A program made the position numbers and the translations under genes. A stretch of 64,000 nt of DNA from an uncultured Candidatus Binatia bacterium. GTDB lineage: Bacteria; Desulfobacterota; Binatia; Bin18. This document shows positions 1 through 7,876 of this stretch, piece after piece. Position 1 is the stretch's first letter. Each line of letters begins with the position of its first letter. The notes below the pieces were generated by a model. That model ran no database searches, was not told the DNA's origin, and worked only from the letters and a program-made list of their open reading frames with translations. The DNA lies in contig OZ243961.1 of the NCBI GenBank assembly GCA_965214605.1, positions 2,624,001-2,688,000 of the forward strand, written 5' to 3'.

Positions 1-345
1 GGATCAATTGTCAATATTTCATCGGTCGCCGGGCTGGTCGGGCTGCCGAACATCCCCGCTTACCAGGCCAGTAAGGGCGCGGTGCGGCTGCTGACCAAAA
101 ATGCCGCCGTCCAGTACGCCCAGGATAATATTCGGGTGAACTCTATTCATCCAGGCCGAATTGAAACCCCGATGACCGCCCCGTTGGCGTCCGAACGCCG
201 GGAGATGGTGCTCAATCTGACCCCGCTCAAACGGGACGGGAAACCCCGAGAGGTGGCCTACGGCGCTCTGTTTCTGGCGTCTGATGAGTCTTCGTACGTG
301 ACCGGGGCGGAACTGGTCATCGACGGGGGCTTCACCGCTCAATAG
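1..345 (+). CDS. Short-chain dehydrogenase/reductase, 5'-truncated by the window edge
   Basis: Frame open from base 1: GSIVNISSVAG...YQASKGAV (YxxxK), IRVNSIHPG, YVTGAELVIDGG. Confidence 0.9.
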   Translation, partial: GSIVNISSVAGLVGLPNIPAYQASKGAVRLLTKNAAVQYAQDNIRVNSIHPGRIETPMTAPLASERREMVLNLTPLKRDGKPREVAYGALFLASDESSYVTGAELVIDGGFTAQ

Positions 346-357
346 GAGGCAGGCAAG

Positions 358-1104
358 ATGACGCCCAGAGTATTCTTCCGACCCGGCTGAAGCTCGTGCG
401 CCAAAACGAAAGAGTTGCTTTCGTCGTGGGGAGTTGCTTTTGAGGAGATCAATGTTGAGCAAGATCCGCAGGCAGGAGCCGAGCTCAAACGCCGCCAGGT
501 CCCGCTCGTCCCGGCTGTTGCGCTTGGTGATCAGATTGTGCACGGCTGGGACCCGCCCGCCCTCGCCGCCTTGGTTGGCGTGGCTTATTCAGCTCCCCCA
601 CAGCTTTCACCGCCGGAACTTGCCGTACAGCTTGACCGGATTCTGGAAGCCGCCCAACGGGCACTTCGGCCCCTCTCTGTCGAACAGCTGCAGACCACAG
701 CTCCTGACCGCGCCCGAACGCTGCGTGATATCGGGTATCATATCTTTCGTCTCAGCCTCGGCTTTCACGACGCGGCCCAACAAGGACGCTTCCCGGCGGC
801 CTGGCTGCTGGAAGCCGTGCCGACCGATATGGGCGATGGAGCAGCCCTGGCACGCTATGGAGAAACGGTGCGGGCCCGTCTGTCAGGCTGGTTTGCCACA
901 CACCCCGGCCAGCCGTTTTCTGTCCCGGTGCAAACCTACTATGGACCTCAGTCTCTCCACGCCCTGTTGGAGCGGACCAATTGGCATGCGGTCCAACATC
1001 TGCGCCAGGTGTACGCCCTGCTAGAGACGGCTGGACTGACTCCCGAGCGGTCCCTCGGCGCCTGGGATTACGTTGGCCTGCCGCTGCCGGATTCGATTTG
1101 GTAA
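358..1104 (+). CDS. Probable selenoprotein: glutaredoxin-like domain (UxxC) fused to a DinB/YfiT-like domain
   Basis: AGGAGG then ATG 358; reads MTPRVFFRPG-TGA(388-390)-SSCAKTKELL, in frame with ORF 415..1104; TGA sits at the first Cys of the Grx CxxC; DinB His motifs (GYHIF, WHAVQH). Confidence 0.8.
401..429 (+). promoter_or_regulatory. Candidate bacterial SECIS hairpin
   Basis: ACGAAAG(406-412)/CTTTCGT(418-424) 7-bp stem with loop AGTTG; lower CCA/TGG pairing; loop begins 22 nt after the in-frame TGA. Confidence 0.65.
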
Positions 1105-1123: not shown

Positions 1124-2143
1124 ATGATCAGTGTTCTTGTCCTGTTCAAACGCATCATCAGAACGCTCCGCAAGGATAGACTGGACCGCGTCGTGCTGGC
1201 TCTGGTGGTGATCACGCTTGTCGGCATGCTGGGCATGGCCTACTTTGACTCTCTGCCTTTGGCCGACTCGCTCTGGTGGACAATTGTGACCATTACCACT
1301 GTTGGCTACGGGGATATTTCTCCGGCATCTCTGGGCGGGAGGATTGTTGGCGTGTTGCTGATGCTGTTTGGCATTGGCTTTCTGGGCCTGTTGACGGCGA
1401 CCCTGGCCAGTAGCTTTGTTGAGGAACGACGGCAGGAGGGAAAAGGCGTGAATCCGGTACATGTGGCTCAGCATCTGCTGCTGTGCGGCTGGAGTTATAA
1501 AGCTAAGGAAATTGTCGAAGAGGTCCGGGCCGATGATGCAGTCCAGATCCGTCCGGTGGTCCTGATCGCCGAGTTGACGGAAAAACCCCTGGAAGATGAC
1601 CAGGTGTACTTTGTGACTGGAGCGGTCACGCAGCAGACCCTGTATAAGGCGAACGCTGGGCAGGCCCAGGCGGCCATTGTCTTATCCGATGAGAGTATTG
1701 AGGCCCATACCAGAGACGCCAAGACCATTCTGGACACACTGACGATCAAGTCGACATATCCAGACCTATACACCAGTGTGGAGCTGGCCGACTCCAAAAA
1801 TGTCGAACACTGCCGGTTGGCCAAGGCCGATGAGATTATTGTCTCGGGCGAGCTGAGTACCAATCTTCTCGTGCGAGCCAGCTTCGACCACGGCGTGACG
1901 CAAATTATTACCGAGCTGGTGAGCAACCGCTTTGGGAGTGAAATTTATAAAACCGTACCGCCCCCCAAATGCGTGGGCCGACCTTTCCTTGAGGTGTTGA
2001 CCCTGTTGAAGATGGACCACAATATTATTGTTGTGGCGGTTGAGAGCGCCAAACAAGGACACTTTCTTGCGAACCCTCCGAATAGCTATATAATTGACGA
2101 AAGAGATCGTCTCGTCGTGGTTGGCAAAGATCGTCAGGCGTAG
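1124..2143 (+). CDS. Potassium channel (2TM pore plus RCK/TrkA domain)
   Basis: TTVGYGD selectivity filter; cytoplasmic Rossmann-like RCK domain (LLCGWS...AQAAIVLS); ATG 1124 chosen as start. Confidence 0.9.
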   Translation: MISVLVLFKRIIRTLRKDRLDRVVLALVVITLVGMLGMAYFDSLPLADSLWWTIVTITTVGYGDISPASLGGRIVGVLLMLFGIGFLGLLTATLASSFVEERRQEGKGVNPVHVAQHLLLCGWSYKAKEIVEEVRADDAVQIRPVVLIAELTEKPLEDDQVYFVTGAVTQQTLYKANAGQAQAAIVLSDESIEAHTRDAKTILDTLTIKSTYPDLYTSVELADSKNVEHCRLAKADEIIVSGELSTNLLVRASFDHGVTQIITELVSNRFGSEIYKTVPPPKCVGRPFLEVLTLLKMDHNIIVVAVESAKQGHFLANPPNSYIIDERDRLVVVGKDRQA

Positions 2144-2156
2144 GAGGAAAGCAGGT

Positions 2157-2555
2157 ATGTCCTCAGAGTATTTTGAGACGGTAAAGACATTTTTGTTAGA
2201 CTTGGGTTATGCGGTGACAGAGGAAGACCCGGACCAGCAATTGGTACTTGTCCGGGATGAAGAAAATGGGATTACCGATCTGATCGTGGATTGTGAAGAT
2301 CCGATTCTCATCCTTGAGCAGATGATCTTGCCGGTTCCGAGCAATCCGGGCGCGCTGTTTGAGCGGTTGCTCCAAATGAACCGGACGCTCGTCCATGGCG
2401 CGTTTGTGTTGGACGAGACCAGCAAAATGGTGTTGTTTCGGGATACGTTGCGCCTAGAAAACCTGGATATGAACGAATTAGAAGGCTCTATTGAAGCGCT
2501 CAGCTTGGCCCTGGCCGAAAATGCCGACGAGTTGTTGGCCTTTAGCAAACAATGA
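2157..2555 (+). CDS. YbjN/CesT-like chaperone-fold protein
   Basis: LLQMNRTLVHGAFVLDE...FRDTLRLENLD pattern; AGGAGG RBS; directly upstream of pspA. Confidence 0.7.
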   Translation: MSSEYFETVKTFLLDLGYAVTEEDPDQQLVLVRDEENGITDLIVDCEDPILILEQMILPVPSNPGALFERLLQMNRTLVHGAFVLDETSKMVLFRDTLRLENLDMNELEGSIEALSLALAENADELLAFSKQ

Positions 2556-2567
2556 GGGAGACCACCT

Positions 2568-3287
2568 ATGGCAAGTGTTTTTCAGCGACTGTTTAAGTTC
2601 GGACAATCCGAGGCGCACGCGGCTCTCGATAAATTTGAAGACCCGATAAAAATGACCGAGCAGGGGATCCGCGATCTCAAGCGTGACCTCCAGGCAAGTA
2701 TGAGCAGTTTGGCCGAGGTCAAAGCCATTGCCATCCGGCTCAGACGGGACACCGATAACAATAAAAGCATGGCCGCCGAGTACGAGCGCAAGGCCATGAT
2801 GCTGCTCCAAAGAATGCAAAACGGCGCGCTTGACCAGACCGAGGCGGAGCGCTTGGCCGGGGAAGCCCTGCGGCGCAAAGAAGAGTGCCTGGAAAAGGCC
2901 ACTCGTACACAAAAGGACTGGGAAACGCAGGATACCATGGCTTCCCAGCTCCAGGGGAAAATCGAGAAGCTCAAATCAACCGTCTCAAAGTATGAAAACG
3001 ATCTGGTCACCCTCAAAGCGCGGGCCAAAACCGCGGCTTCGACCAAGAAGATCAATCAGCAGCTGTCCAAGATCGATTCATCTGGCACGATCGCCATGCT
3101 GGAAAAGATGCGCACCAAGGTTGAAGAAGACGAGTCGCTAGCCCAGGCTTACGGCTCAATAGCCGATGCCGACCAGACCATTGAGGACGAGATTGACAGC
3201 GCGCTGACCTCCAAAACCGCGCCGGCGACCAGCAGCGCCCTGGCCGACCTGAAGGCCAAAATGGGGATTATCGCCGCCGGCTCATAG
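2568..3287 (+). CDS. pspA: PspA/IM30 family protein
   Basis: N-terminal amphipathic FQRLFK, EDPIKMTEQ.IRDL, long coiled coil, LADLKAKMG C-terminus. Confidence 0.9.
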   Translation: MASVFQRLFKFGQSEAHAALDKFEDPIKMTEQGIRDLKRDLQASMSSLAEVKAIAIRLRRDTDNNKSMAAEYERKAMMLLQRMQNGALDQTEAERLAGEALRRKEECLEKATRTQKDWETQDTMASQLQGKIEKLKSTVSKYENDLVTLKARAKTAASTKKINQQLSKIDSSGTIAMLEKMRTKVEEDESLAQAYGSIADADQTIEDEIDSALTSKTAPATSSALADLKAKMGIIAAGS

Positions 3288-3304
3288 CACAAAGGAGAAC
3301 GCTG

Positions 3305-3856
3305 GTGGCATTCCGGGACTGGTTAAAGGGCTTGTTTGCCGACAAAGAGCCAGAGCTAGATCCACTTGAGCTTTCCCTGGCCGACCTGAAAAAGGGCTAT
3401 CTGGTCGACTACGACCTCAAAACCTGGCAGGTCGCCAGTCACAATACCTATGACTTTGACGGTGACCGAGCCGAGGAGTGGGAACTGTTCTCGGGTGATG
3501 ACCGCTGCTATCTCGGCGTTGAGCGGGACGACGAGGACGAGTGGTCAATCAGCCGCAAGATTGCGTTTTCGGCGCTCGGCACAGAGATTAAAGACCACTT
3601 GATCAAGCACGACGACCCGCCTGGGACAATTGTGTACGATGGGACCCGTTACACCCTTGAAGAGAGCGGCGCAGGGCATTTCTTTGCCGATGGCCGGGTA
3701 GCGGGCGATGAGATGATCTACTGGGATTACACGGACGAGACGGGTGAGAAACTACTTACCCTCGAACAGTGGGGCGAGACCGAGTTTGAAGCCTCTGTTG
3801 GCAAGACGGTTCAGGCCTACGAATTTCGGAATATTTTGCCCAAGCACCAGGGGTGA
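3305..3856 (+). CDS. DUF4178-like protein
   Basis: Acidic beta-rich protein (YDLKTWQV, EWEL, YWDY..LEQW); typical pspA-speE neighbourhood. Confidence 0.7.
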   Translation: MAFRDWLKGLFADKEPELDPLELSLADLKKGYLVDYDLKTWQVASHNTYDFDGDRAEEWELFSGDDRCYLGVERDDEDEWSISRKIAFSALGTEIKDHLIKHDDPPGTIVYDGTRYTLEESGAGHFFADGRVAGDEMIYWDYTDETGEKLLTLEQWGETEFEASVGKTVQAYEFRNILPKHQG

Positions 3857-4305
3857 CGAGGGGATGTCGAAACGGCGGCCCATCATCTCGGTGCGCTTCC
3901 CCGGAAAATGAATGCCCCTGGGTTCTTGGAGTTTTTCCAGCGGAACTCGGCGTAGCCCCCCAGACCCCGTCATGCCACCAACGGGTGGGGAAACAGGCCG
4001 TCGAACCTTCCCCCTGATCGGATTCACGCGCGCTCCCCAGCGGCGCCAAACGCCCGCCTGCCCTCACCCGGCTCACACTTGATGGAAGACGGGGGTGAAG
4101 AATCTCTGCCGCTCTCCTCAAGATTGGGTGGGAGAACTGCAAGCCGTGTTGACGTCCCTAGGCCGTAAGAGTCTCTCGACAATGGGACCCGGCTGCCCCC
4201 CAAGAGAGCAGAGCACACGATCTCCCCCATCCTCAGACCGAGGTGGGGGGTCTGGACAATCCGACGACGAGCTGCGGTGGACCGCGGGGAGTGCTTGGAG
4301 AGCTC

Positions 4306-5850
4306 TTAATACACCTCCCAGCGGCCGCGTCTATAATACTCGTGTAGAACCGGCTGGAGTTCGTTGTTCACACTGATCTGAGTGCTGTCGTCAAAAACAC
4401 CCTTGCCAAAGTGGGTCATGGACAGGAGTGCCTCTTGGTTGAGAAAGCGCGTCTCAAGATGATCAAAGGACAGCCCTAAGAGGGCCTCCTTGAGGGCCTT
4501 GTGCTCCATCAGGCTTGCGTCCACCCCCAACACAAATCCCCACTCCCCCATCGTTGGAATGTGGTTGTGGTAGGCCAGCGGACTCAGGCCGGCCGCTTGG
4601 AACGTCTTGTAGATACACACAAACGCCTTACGGGTAAACGATGGACTCGTTGCCTGGGTTACAACCACCCCGCCCCGTTTGAGCTGTTTTTTGCACAGGC
4701 GGTAGAAGTCGAGCGAGTACAGACGCGCCAGAACAACGGAATTTGGATCTGGCAGGTCAATGATAATCACATCAAAGAGCCGCCGGGCCGTCTGTAAAAA
4801 GGTGAACGCATCGGCGTGCACAATTTCAACCCGGGGATCGCTCAGGGCGTTGTCGTTGAGCTGGACGAGGACCGGATGCGAAGCTGCCAGTTCAGTCATG
4901 GCCGGGTCGAGATCAACAAGGGTGAGGCGGCTGACCGCCGGATATTTGAGAACTTCCCGCGCCGCCAGTCCGTCCCCCCCGCCCAGAATCAGCACCTCGT
5001 ATCCATCGGTCATCAACGATTTGCCGACGAGGCTCAGAGCGGGGTGAACTAAGGGCTCATGATAGCGCTCCTCGTCATAGCTGCTGAACTGCTGGTTGCC
5101 GTTGATGTACAGCCAGTAATACTCTCGCCAGCGCGTCATGACCAGCCGCTGGTAGGTCGTCTGTTTCACTAAGATGATGGTATCTTTGTAGAGCGCTTGC
5201 TCGCCAAACAAGACAATCGGTTTGGCCCACGCAGCAAGGATGAAGAGACCGCTGCTCACCCCGACCCACAGCCCCAACATGAGTCGCGGGCGGGCAAACA
5301 CGGACCGAAAGCGAAACACAAACACGGAGGCGACGACAAAATTCACCACTCCTAGCGCAATCGGGGTATAGGTCAGGCCGAGATACGGCAGGGCTACAAA
5401 GGCAAAGACGAGGCCACCCACCAAGGCTCCGTAATAGTCCTTTTCCAGGACCGAGGAGATATTCACCCGCAGTTCTTCATAGCCGGCGTTGACACGGGTG
5501 ATGAGCGGGATTTCCATGCCGATCAACAGGCCAATAGCAATCGCCAAGGGGTAGATCACGACCCCGGCATTGTTCACAAACGCAGAGAGGGCATAGCTGG
5601 CGGCGGCCGCACTCGCGCACAGGAGCGACAGGCCGAATTCGATAACGGTAAAGGTATCAAGCAGCGCAGCGCTAAAGGAGCGGCTCAGACGGCTTCCCAC
5701 CCCCATAGCAAACAGCATCAGCGACATCAGCAGGGTCCACTGAAGCGTGGCATTGCCGAGAAAGTAGCTGGCCAGGGTACACAGCACAAACTCGGCCACA
5801 ATGCCTGCGCAGCCAGTGGCAAACAGGCACAGCTTCAGCAGGCTAGACAC
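4306..5850 (-). CDS. speE: Membrane-anchored polyamine aminopropyltransferase (spermidine synthase-like)
   Basis: N-terminal multi-TM region, then LILGGGDG, LVDLD, DVIIIDLPDP motifs. Confidence 0.9.
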   Translation of the reverse strand: MSSLLKLCLFATGCAGIVAEFVLCTLASYFLGNATLQWTLLMSLMLFAMGVGSRLSRSFSAALLDTFTVIEFGLSLLCASAAAASYALSAFVNNAGVVIYPLAIAIGLLIGMEIPLITRVNAGYEELRVNISSVLEKDYYGALVGGLVFAFVALPYLGLTYTPIALGVVNFVVASVFVFRFRSVFARPRLMLGLWVGVSSGLFILAAWAKPIVLFGEQALYKDTIILVKQTTYQRLVMTRWREYYWLYINGNQQFSSYDEERYHEPLVHPALSLVGKSLMTDGYEVLILGGGDGLAAREVLKYPAVSRLTLVDLDPAMTELAASHPVLVQLNDNALSDPRVEIVHADAFTFLQTARRLFDVIIIDLPDPNSVVLARLYSLDFYRLCKKQLKRGGVVVTQATSPSFTRKAFVCIYKTFQAAGLSPLAYHNHIPTMGEWGFVLGVDASLMEHKALKEALLGLSFDHLETRFLNQEALLSMTHFGKGVFDDSTQISVNNELQPVLHEYYRRGRWEVY

Positions 5851-6688
5851 ACCAGATGATCAGGAAAGATGCGCCCACATAGGAGAACATCTCCAGACAG
5901 GCCACGCCGAGATGGGGCTGGTCTTGTTCGACGAGCTTGGCCGAGATGCTAGTGCCGGGCAGCAAGATCTTGTCCGTTGCGAAACGAACCACGGGCAGGA
6001 AGAGGAGCCCGACTAGGGCATAGCTGCCAAAGGCCATAAAATTGCTCTGCCAGGAGAAGAATTCCTCGCTAGCGGCAAAGCCTAAGATGTTGCCCATTGC
6101 AATGAGGGCTCCGGCAAAGCTGACCCCAACCGCGACATTATCACGCTCAATCTCGCTATGAATGCTATAGGGGGTAATCCACTCGTACATCAGCCCGGTG
6201 AGTATCAGCCCGAGCTGCCCCACGCTCCAGAAGGCCAGCGCGGTCCAGATCGTTCCGGTTTCACCGGACAAGGCGCCAAACAGGATGAGACCAGTGGCAA
6301 TATATATCCCGGCTTCGGTTATGCCGGTGCCCGCATTATGGTCGTGGATGATTTCCTTTTCGTTCTCGAACTGAAACAAAATCAGCTTATCGCTGACCAC
6401 GGTTGAGATGTTGAGGAGGACGATGCCCAAGGGACCGTATAGGAGGATATCGACCACATCTTCCACTAGACCGTGTGACGGACCGCTGAGCACCCCGCCG
6501 ATGGTCAAAATCAGTCCCAAGTAATAGCCGACCAGCGCCAAAGCCAGGGCAACATTATCGTTGTCCACGAGCTCTTCTTTGACACGGAACCCACGGTGCA
6601 GCAGATCAAAAACCCGCTTGCCAAGCCAAAACAAGGCGTAGGCACAGAGGAGATAGAAAAAGGCGAGGATGAGGGAATCGAGAGTCAT
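5843..6688 (-). CDS. DUF350 membrane protein (tandem domains)
   Basis: Repeated 'E...DNVA' motif between hydrophobic helices; overlaps the speE start. Confidence 0.75.
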   Translation of the reverse strand: MTLDSLILAFFYLLCAYALFWLGKRVFDLLHRGFRVKEELVDNDNVALALALVGYYLGLILTIGGVLSGPSHGLVEDVVDILLYGPLGIVLLNISTVVSDKLILFQFENEKEIIHDHNAGTGITEAGIYIATGLILFGALSGETGTIWTALAFWSVGQLGLILTGLMYEWITPYSIHSEIERDNVAVGVSFAGALIAMGNILGFAASEEFFSWQSNFMAFGSYALVGLLFLPVVRFATDKILLPGTSISAKLVEQDQPHLGVACLEMFSYVGASFLIIWCV

Positions 6689-6703
6689 GGCCTATTGAGT
6701 CGT

Positions 6704-7411
6704 CTATTTACCAGAACCGAAGCTGCGGGAGCGAAACGAGGAGCTGCTGCTGCGCCCTACCCGGCTTTGGAACTTTTGGCGAAACCGCTGCTGACTCGCC
6801 ACCTCGCGCGTTTGGCGGCGCTCAAAAAAATCCGGGTTGCTCTGTTTGGTTCTCGTGCCGTTGGTGCCGTACTCGCGACCGGTCCGGCCGTAGTAGGGAC
6901 GCCTTTGGTCCCGGTAACTGCGGTATCGGTCATAATCCCGGCGAAAGATAGATCCTCCGGCCAAACCGAGCACGTCTCTGAGCAGCGCGTATTTGCCATA
7001 AAACTCCCAAAAGGAGCTGCCGCTGCTATCGGTCTTCCACTGCCCGTATTTTTCGTTGCCAACGTAGTGGTAGGGGGCCGGATGGGGGGTGGTATTCTCT
7101 TGCTCCTTGTTCTTTGAAGCTAGGCTCAGGCCGAGGAAGTTTTCATTTCTTCGATAGAACTGTTCGGAAATCTCAAGCCATTTGGTTGACCAGACCTGCT
7201 CGCCCTGCAAGACCTTGTATTTATGGTAATATGCTGGAAAGAAGATGCCCTCCTCACGCATATCCTCCAAGATGATAGTGTACTCGGGCGCGTCGCGCAG
7301 TTGGGCTTTAAGATTGTCGAGAGGAGACAAGGAGCTAGAACAGCCTGACGACACCAGGCCGATGATCAGGAACAGGCCGAGGAGGCTCGGGGTGGAGAAG
7401 ATACGACGCAT
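6704..7411 (-). CDS. Hypothetical lipoprotein with Arg/Ser-rich tail
   Basis: Signal peptide ending SSGC; FWEFYGKY motif; RSRSFGSGK tail. Confidence 0.65.
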   Translation of the reverse strand: MRRIFSTPSLLGLFLIIGLVSSGCSSSLSPLDNLKAQLRDAPEYTIILEDMREEGIFFPAYYHKYKVLQGEQVWSTKWLEISEQFYRRNENFLGLSLASKNKEQENTTPHPAPYHYVGNEKYGQWKTDSSGSSFWEFYGKYALLRDVLGLAGGSIFRRDYDRYRSYRDQRRPYYGRTGREYGTNGTRTKQSNPDFFERRQTREVASQQRFRQKFQSRVGRSSSSSFRSRSFGSGK

Positions 7412-7516
7412 TGTGTGTCCTTGTCACCGGCCATACTTAGGATGAACAAACTTGGGGTCGGCGTCAAGCTGAAGGGACACGAGGAATGACGGAGCATTCC
7501 TCGTTCTACCAAGACC

Positions 7517-7876
7517 ATGTCTAAAATAGGAACCCATCTGCTGGCCGACCTGTATGGGATAGACCTGGCTCTGCTGAGAGACGAGGGAGTGCTGCTCGGC
7601 GTCTTTCGCGCCGCGCTTGACAACGCCGGTTTTACCGTGCTCTCCCACCTCAGCCACCGCTTTGCCGACGGCGGACAAGGCGTGACCGGTATGTTTCTGT
7701 TGTCCGTATCCCACGCTACCTTCCACACCTTCCCTGAACACGGCTATATGGCGGTGGATATTTTTTCGTGTGGCAGCGCCGATCCACACGCGGTGCTCGG
7801 CGTCCTGACCAAGACCTTTGCGCCCCACACCGTGCGCACCCAGCGGGCGGACAGGGGGAAGAAAGACGGGGCGTGA
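7517..7876 (+). CDS. speD: S-adenosylmethionine decarboxylase proenzyme (variant cleavage motif VSH)
   Basis: GTHLLADLYG, GVTG..LLS-V-SHATFHTFPEHGY.AVDIFSCG. Confidence 0.8.
   Translation: MSKIGTHLLADLYGIDLALLRDEGVLLGVFRAALDNAGFTVLSHLSHRFADGGQGVTGMFLLSVSHATFHTFPEHGYMAVDIFSCGSADPHAVLGVLTKTFAPHTVRTQRADRGKKDGA

Follow-up and report, generated by a model that had tools for sequence, protein, structure and literature searches.

The fusion gene and its locus

The window analysed here is a 64,000-nucleotide stretch of DNA from an uncultured Candidatus Binatia bacterium, and positions are counted along its forward strand. At 358..1104 (+) lies a gene for a protein of 248 aa, a fusion of a (seleno)redoxin and a DinB-type domain, which runs from ATG (358-360) to TAA (1102-1104) when an in-frame TGA is read through. 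A Shine-Dalgarno-like AGGAGG (344..349, +) stands 8 nt before the ATG and overlaps the TAG (343-345) of the neighbouring SDR gene (PF13561), whose 3' end occupies 1..345 (+), 12 nt upstream of the fusion gene; GGAGG precedes the start in most of the relatives displayed, though not in every one. No sigma-70 promoter-like site was found for the fusion gene, and the SDR gene, which is upstream in 14/91 homologous loci (those nearest the window), is likely co-transcribed with it. On the other side, 1124-7876 holds K+ channel, CesT/YbjN-like, PspA, DUF4178, spermidine-synthase-like, DUF350 and AdoMet decarboxylase genes. The K+ channel/PspA block was rejected as a trait of the family, since it is downstream in 6/91 loci, all from the window's genus; in six related loci the gene close by is one for an ETF subunit, so the block looks inserted.

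Translation from position 358 gives MTPRVFFRPG, the TGA (388-390) and then SSC. The initial annotation had read FRPG-TGA-SSC from this ATG and its Shine-Dalgarno sequence, in the frame of the ORF at 415, and the sequence and its translation bear it out. It had also held that standard annotation would truncate the gene, as has indeed happened: the table-11 ORF begins at TTG 415, within the loop of the hairpin described below, and among the 120 close homologues listed nearly all begin past the motif, most of them 216-234 aa long. In almost every close database entry at least the first 19 residues, and with them the active site, are missing. The homologues are full-length in 91 loci, where the TGA is the sole internal stop, and three full-length database homologues (P0063, P0066, P0070) have RPGCSSC. 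The window's genome (G000) has one copy of the gene, and a search of genome contigs with the single protein returned only two unrelated glutaredoxins.

The in-frame TGA as a selenocysteine codon

The TGA at 388..390 (+) is almost certainly read as selenocysteine (Sec11), a prediction that draws on the conservation described here. It would be the first residue of a U-S-S-C redox motif (388..399, +), whose second cysteine, Cys14 (397-399), is retained in 90/91 loci. Of the 91 loci, 11 come from genomes, among them the window's, and 80 are on metagenome contigs, the best-ranking of 449 found. TGA occupies the Sec11 codon in all 91 and in 27/27 further genome loci (29-52% identity; one a repeat). 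Cysteine counterparts, for which the initial annotation had proposed to look, were found in P0063, P0066 and P0070 and in proteobacterial plasmids, where the codon is TGT or TGC in 6/6 homologues. Among 150 distant representatives, 60 align over the motif, and 54 of those 60 have C-x-x-C. Read-through homologues have Cys opposite the TGA and in no case Trp. A quick tree of 87 rows, for which the Sec/Cys position was masked, shows at least four changes between Sec and Cys, and the Cys forms P0063, P0066 and P0070 are nested within the Sec clade. Rare variants of the motif are U-S-S-G in L112 (4031-4042) and S-T-S-S, with both cysteines gone, in P0254.

The residues just before the TGA, Arg8, Pro9 and Gly10, are retained, through varying codons, in 60-61 of 62 non-redundant genes, which indicates that the region upstream of the TGA is translated. 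The counterpart of TTG 415 is not conserved (CTC 21, TTG 20, CTG 16 and TTA 3, of 60). General recoding of TGA was ruled out, as TGA is the terminal stop in 48/91 genes, and so was an assembly error, given the 91/91 and 27/27 loci and contigs from three runs. These contigs, from runs X1, X5 and X6, span the codon as TGA with no alternative letter (X7 has no coverage of it), although X1 may be the source of the GCA_965214605.1 assembly itself; the TGC or TGT that the initial annotation had named as evidence against its reading did not appear.

The SECIS-like hairpin

A SECIS-like hairpin with a 7-bp stem lies at 406..424 (+), formed by ACGAAAG (406-412), the loop AGTTG (413-417) and CTTTCGT (418-424), and can be extended to about 401-429. 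There are 22 nt from the TGA to the loop, and G stands at loop position 2; the stem, loop and spacing are those given in the initial annotation. The folding energy of the 53-nt hairpin stretch is -18.1 kcal/mol (z -2.18), a value equalled in 4/200 shuffles, and the window's hairpin taken alone is only modestly beyond chance. By a loose criterion, a comparable hairpin follows 5,419 of the 138,051 TGA triplets of the genome (3.9%).

More can be learned from the relatives. In an alignment of 57 distinct sequences, 86% of cells pair, vs 37-52% with the partners slid, and 4/12 pairs are altered on both sides; no shuffle in 500 reached the paired share, a figure that kinship inflates, and the covariation counts overstate the support because they are drawn from related protein-coding sequences. 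Two stem codons are fixed in the non-redundant genes: Thr17 is ACG in 62/62 (vs 51% elsewhere) and Ser22 is TCG in 53/53 (vs 46% elsewhere). Six to seven of the 7 stem pairs are retained in 73/82 distinct TGA genes vs 0/6 Cys genes, which have a weaker hairpin (n=6) despite encoding a similar K-E-F-L peptide. Judged from these comparisons, the hairpin is under selection. Loop position 2 is G in 81/82 TGA genes and also in 4/6 Cys genes, the latter because Glu19 dictates that G. Fold, codon fixation, pairing and loop G thus all agree with the SECIS-like element first suggested; Rfam gave no match for it. A stand-alone U-P-P-C glutaredoxin at L022:1501-1752 (G034) has an almost identical hairpin, which suggests that the SECIS travels along with the redoxin domain.

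Selenocysteine machinery and other candidate selenoproteins

The four components whose presence the initial annotation had put forward as a check, selA, selB, selC (tRNA-Sec) and selD, all occur in the window's genome (99.99% complete), each above its cut-off, and selD itself has an in-frame TGA. selB adjoins selD and selA adjoins tRNA-Sec (G000:C1:1899798-1902715; 3624480-3625952), both distant from the fusion gene. Across the genomes carrying the TGA gene, selA was found in 33/36; selA, selB and tRNA-Sec were not found in the other three, G027, G1077 and G1011 (completeness 100, 93 and 88; contigs 240, 670 and 310). A congener of G027 has selA, and in these fragmented assemblies the absent genes are likely on missing contigs. 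With the conserved TGA, its Cys counterparts and the hairpin retained in TGA genes, this machinery upholds the Sec reading of the initial annotation.

The same genome looks rich in selenoproteins. Seven in-frame TGA codons of G000:C1 in a U-G-x-C context with hairpins (623108, 970954, 2061126, 2286765, 2698976, 3022715 and 3138982) resemble, we assume, those of UGSC-family selenoproteins. Five further candidate Sec codons, at 954488 (+), 370458 (+), 1557442 (-), 475654 (-) and 215216 (+), have the motifs H-W-U-P-F-C, C-A-A-U, P-V-U-P-x-C (two) and C-M-H-U. Of these, H-W-U-P-F-C, whose hairpin has an AGTTG loop as in the fusion gene, we take to be peroxiredoxin-like, C-A-A-U SelW-like and P-V-U-P-x-C GrdB/PrdB-like.

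Domain architecture and conserved residues

The protein consists of an NrdH/YruB-like thioredoxin-fold domain (residues 1-76; 358..585, +) and a DinB/YfiT four-helix bundle (residues 82-233; 601..1056, +). Pfam recognizes Glutaredoxin (PF00462) at residues 5-61, with E 3e-13 and 50.1 bits against a cut-off of 22.9, and DinB_2 (PF12867) at residues 91-218, with E 6.5e-7 and 30.3 bits against 24.8. No NCBIfam model of the NrdH, YruB, glutaredoxin 3 or Uxx-star families reaches its cut-off; the best is TIGR02196 (49.3 vs cut-off 88.55), NF041212 gives 33.9 (vs 66), and the redox domain scores higher with the NrdH/YruB models than with glutaredoxin 3. The initial annotation had described a Sec-glutaredoxin fused to a DinB-like domain: the glutaredoxin fold and the DinB bundle stand, and by its best scores the redox domain is closer to NrdH/YruB-type redoxins than to classical glutathione-using glutaredoxins.

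An AlphaFold2 model of the fusion protein has a pLDDT of 93.8 and a pTM of 0.89. In fold searches, residues 1-76 match NrdH-like redoxins (3zij, Z 13.6; 1h75, Z 13.2) and residues 82-233 match 6iz2 (DR0053; Z 15.7, rmsd 2.2, 142 aligned residues), followed by YfiT 1rxq (Z 13.4), MST 8f5v (13.1), maleylpyruvate isomerase 2nsg (12.9) and BstA 5wk0 (10.0); DinB-type chains make up 8/10 of the top rows. None of the solved structures matches both domains by sequence.

Conservation singles out residues in both domains. Cys14, besides its near-invariance in the loci, is found in 57 of those distant representatives whose alignment extends to its column, and Pro52 (511-513) is presumably the cis-Pro of the thioredoxin fold. 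In the bundle, His128 on helix 2 (739..741, +) and the H-x3-H pair on helix 4, His210 and His214 (985..999, +), are invariant in 91/91 loci, as are Arg120, Gln213, Arg216 and Gln217, and Arg206 is retained in 90/91. The residue aligned with His128 is histidine in 142 of the 149 distant representatives that reach this position, and the helix-4 pair is invariant in alignment A4 (94 proteins). The metal site of YfiT and BstA is described as made by histidines on helices 2 and 4 (PMC10950700), and by analogy with this site the three conserved histidines very probably bind metal. Homologues in L032 (G005) and L033 (G004) have an 18-residue in-frame insertion near residue 113.

Distribution and relation to known families

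The fusion family occurs in 56/401 genomes of the window's class, mostly in one family (46/64) together with the window's kin, in 3/301 genomes of a phylum-wide sample, and in 5/401 genomes from the phylum of a Chloroflexi-labelled genome. Among the matches listed, the source names of the close ones are Deltaproteobacteria, Candidatus Binatia and Candidatus Rokubacteria, and a profile search gave 221 clusters at 50% identity (E up to 1e-30). Cys-form proteins are encoded on plasmids of Caballeronia, Variovorax, Roseomonas and Rhizobium (e.g., WP_244817409.1, WP_162571355.1, WP_207446294.1). They share the two domains and a C-S-S-C motif with the window protein, at 29-39% identity, but differ in having TGT/TGC for TGA and a weaker hairpin; no functional study of these proteins, named 'glutaredoxin domain-containing' or 'DinB family', was found. 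In P0193 (721 aa), an MmgE/PrpD protein is fused to a complete Cys-form redoxin-DinB unit.

Four known systems invite comparison. A Sec-containing glutaredoxin (PF00462, UxxC) is entered as experimentally verified in Table 1 of a recent catalogue (PMC13188914). It resembles the window protein in its thioredoxin fold, in Sec as the first residue of UxxC and in a SECIS-like hairpin within the next codons; the window protein is unlike it in being fused to a DinB domain of 170 residues, in its NrdH/YruB-like character and in falling below every NCBIfam cut-off. The stand-alone members of the DinB/YfiT superfamily (1rxq, 5wk0, 8f5v, 6iz2) have the same four-helix bundle with conserved histidines on helices 2 and 4, but they use free thiols and are only 10-21% identical to the window protein; in the parts of the selenoprotein catalogues compared, none of YfiT, BstA, MST and DR0053 is listed as a selenoprotein.

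Maleylpyruvate isomerase depends on a thiol and isomerises a product of ring cleavage (PMC4360819). The mycothiol-dependent enzyme (2nsg) shares the DinB bundle (rmsd 2.9, 152 aligned), but it needs free mycothiol and has neither a redoxin domain nor Sec. Its metal set is His-Glu-His, against the His-His-His predicted for the window protein. As regards mycothiol as a cofactor, the MshC model, the one examined, stays below cut-off in 8/8 genomes of the genus. We propose this isomerase as a working analogue and do not file the window protein as a member. Cys-type glutathione transferases (omega, zeta, beta) combine an N-terminal thioredoxin fold, with the catalytic residue at the start of helix 1, and a helical C-terminal domain. 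The likeness of this layout to the window protein is an analogy only: the C-terminal domain is of the GST type rather than a DinB bundle with a His triad, and whole-chain Foldseek matches have an rmsd of 9-16 A.

The architecture has apparently escaped the catalogues. Table 1 of the 119-family 2026 catalogue (PMC13188914) includes Sec-glutaredoxin but not a fusion with DinB. The word 'DinB' has 0 occurrences in the text of that catalogue and likewise 0 in the main texts of deep-Sep (PMC12013277) and BSepDB (PMC13326102). At title/abstract level no paper on a glutaredoxin-DinB fusion was found, though Deng et al. 2026 (Cell Rep) might include it. By the catalogues compared, and judging from the sequence comparisons, we regard the locus with near certainty as a real selenoprotein gene, one of uncatalogued architecture.

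A predicted composite site

The spatial relation of the two domains was modelled with P0066, a Cys homologue (52% identical), whose domains were folded as separate chains with zinc. The pair scored 0.87, against 0.02 for the best of three controls; the mark used is reached by 116/157 solved complexes and 2/215 mismatched pairs, counts that apply only roughly here; domains cut from a single protein are apt to pass this test. The runs share at least 92% of contacts, with partner pLDDT of at least 88. The lowest-error contacts link Ser12 and Ser13 to His209, His213, Trp208, Gln212 and Arg205: both serines touch His209, and Ser12 touches His213 (His210 and His214 of the window protein). Cys11, Cys14 and His129 are not named among the confident contacts of this model, and zinc contacts are not reported for it. 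The model suggests that the Sec/Cys loop abuts the helix-4 histidines of the DinB bundle, and on this prediction the redoxin loop and the DinB histidines probably form one composite site.

Gene neighbourhoods

A universal operon is absent across the loci scanned. The survey covered 144 neighbour loci, which include repeats of some genomes; neighbours were clustered after a composition filter that dropped some real genes (the fusion gene itself was kept in only 33/91 loci), and Pfam scans were made on 48 hand-chosen ORFs, mostly from 101 clusters, and on 93/126 representatives. An enoyl-CoA hydratase is a neighbour in 51/144 loci. Most loci, the window's included, have neighbours other than aconitase-type hydratases.

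A minority of loci, in distant settings, have a theme in common. In L168 genes for a PEP-mutase/ICL-family lyase and LeuC-like and LeuD-like proteins come about 30 nt past the TGA-type gene, all on one strand. On two Caballeronia/Burkholderia plasmids leuCD-like and ICL/PEP-mutase genes diverge from the Cys gene, and in L129 the gene diverges from a cluster of HMG-CoA-lyase-like, CoA-transferase and fused aconitase-type genes. In Variovorax the Cys gene lies amid CoA-transferase, MmgE/PrpD and HMG-CoA-lyase genes. PEP-mutase/ICL-family genes occur in four neighbour settings and HMG-CoA-lyase-like genes in two. The three aconitase-family hydratases (L124/L126, L129, L168) are mutually 33-36% alike, so the hydratase link is not simply inherited; it is seen in 5/144 loci, 4 records being distinct, and was noticed post hoc. 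In a control of five genomes, matches per genome numbered 2-9 for the aconitase family, 3-7 for PEP-mutase and 8-72 for MmgE/PrpD, and a rough estimate puts an aconitase-family gene within 8 kb of 0.4-3% of genes. Three independent aconitase-family cases are more than expected, though chosen after the fact. MmgE/PrpD neighbours (13/144 loci) were discounted as a functional link, being mostly background at 8-72 matches per genome; G027 has the 72. In Roseomonas and some metagenome loci the neighbours are isochorismatase-family, amidase and ABC-transporter genes, which also point to small-molecule catabolism. Taken together, the neighbours weakly indicate catabolism of carboxylic acids, not stress or efflux.

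Proposed function and alternatives

Stand-alone DinB enzymes activate a free thiol at a metal, and one of them isomerises maleylpyruvate with mycothiol (PMC10950700, PMC4360819). The predicted position of the redoxin loop at the DinB site and the conserved arginines lead us to take Sec11 as a built-in nucleophile. Our preferred reading, held at somewhat less than even confidence, is a self-contained selenol enzyme in which a Sec nucleophile beside a His-bound metal acts on a small unsaturated carboxylic acid. That its role is a catabolic one on a carboxylic acid is, considered separately, close to an even call, whereas the specific reaction, cis-trans isomerisation, is suggested more tentatively by the fold and the neighbours. 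The protein would supply Sec11 in place of free mycothiol, bacillithiol or glutathione; the selenol would add to the activated C=C, the bond would rotate, and the selenol would depart, as in the mycothiol-dependent maleylpyruvate isomerase. The conserved arginines could bind the substrate carboxylates, and the cis acid might pass to an aconitase-type hydratase and then to a C-C lyase, with Cys14 and thioredoxin reductase restoring any oxidised Sec.

The near-invariance of Cys14 (90/91 loci, and 57 of the distant representatives aligned over its column) is easier to reconcile with a net redox cycle than with a pure isomerase, which makes a reductive lyase the closest rival, albeit one we consider unlikely. 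Here Sec and the composite site are retained, but the protein would be a net two-electron reductase or reductive lyase acting on a metal-bound thioether, disulfide, halide, epoxide or sulfoxide: Sec would attack, Cys14 would resolve the adduct and thioredoxin reductase would recycle the pair, much as in a Cys-type glutathione transferase with a DinB bundle. NrdH-redoxins use thioredoxin reductase, and the NrdH-like head would suit this scheme, as would the thioredoxin reductase gene directly downstream of the fusion gene in L129 and the GST folds among the weaker structure matches, poor as their rmsd is. Yet the reductase is a neighbour in only 1/144 loci, and a saturated, reduced product would not obviously feed a hydratase.

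Quite unlikely, in our judgement, is the detoxification role favoured by the initial annotation, in which a glutathione-dependent S-transferase or de-glutathionylase binds glutathione at the DinB metal and the Sec-glutaredoxin resolves mixed disulfides or conjugates. DinB/YfiT proteins are described as His-metal thiol S-transferases (PMC10950700, PMC4360819). The fold matches to MST, YfiT and BstA agree with such a role, and gshB is present in 8/8 genomes of the genus, where bshC was not found and the mshC model stays below cut-off. On the other hand, the predicted redox loop would fill the face of the His site expected for a free thiol, the NrdH/YruB models outscore glutaredoxin 3, and no efflux, stress or glutathione genes recur among the neighbours scanned.

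A general selenoredoxin, or a handler of metals or metalloids such as Hg, As or Se species, in which the DinB domain would serve as a pocket for binding or as an accessory, seems distinctly improbable. It would accord with the link drawn in the catalogue between many uncharacterised bacterial selenoproteins and metal/metalloid resistance (PMC13188914), and with Uxx-star and ArsC-like selenoprotein models that match weakly, each under its cut-off; but mer, ars and metal-efflux operons are not recurrent in the loci scanned, and the invariance of a set of Arg, Gln, Trp and His residues hints that the substrate is a specific organic one. Finally, that the TGA is a true stop, or encodes Trp or Cys, and that the product is the 229-aa ORF from TTG 415 or the gene a pseudogene, is barely credible: the truncated form of nearly all close database entries and the three TGA-carrying genomes without detected Sec machinery would suit it, but the TTG start is not conserved, residues upstream of the TGA are under protein-level selection, read-through homologues have Cys and never Trp, and TGA also ends 48/91 of the genes.

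Implications

The selenol enzyme with a built-in nucleophile, stated in full, would be the first selenoenzyme of the DinB superfamily: a selenolate borne by a redoxin domain would replace the free thiol at a three-His metal and isomerise or reductively cleave unsaturated acids, in a catabolic route not described before that involves LeuCD-type hydratases and PEP-mutase/ICL-type lyases. Such a route would be found in Binatia-, Rokubacteria- and Chloroflexota-type bacteria, and culturable Proteobacteria have the Cys versions; we advance this complete picture only tentatively. With this gene the bacterial selenoproteome gains a widespread architecture, and selenium is connected with the DinB thiol-transferase superfamily, which does not figure in the catalogues compared. 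Should the composite site be true, the protein shows how a thiol-dependent metalloenzyme can dispense with its free thiol cofactor. The natural Sec/Cys pairs, which arose through at least four switches, together with the Cys forms of culturable bacteria, allow the function, and the advantage that selenium brings, to be tested directly.
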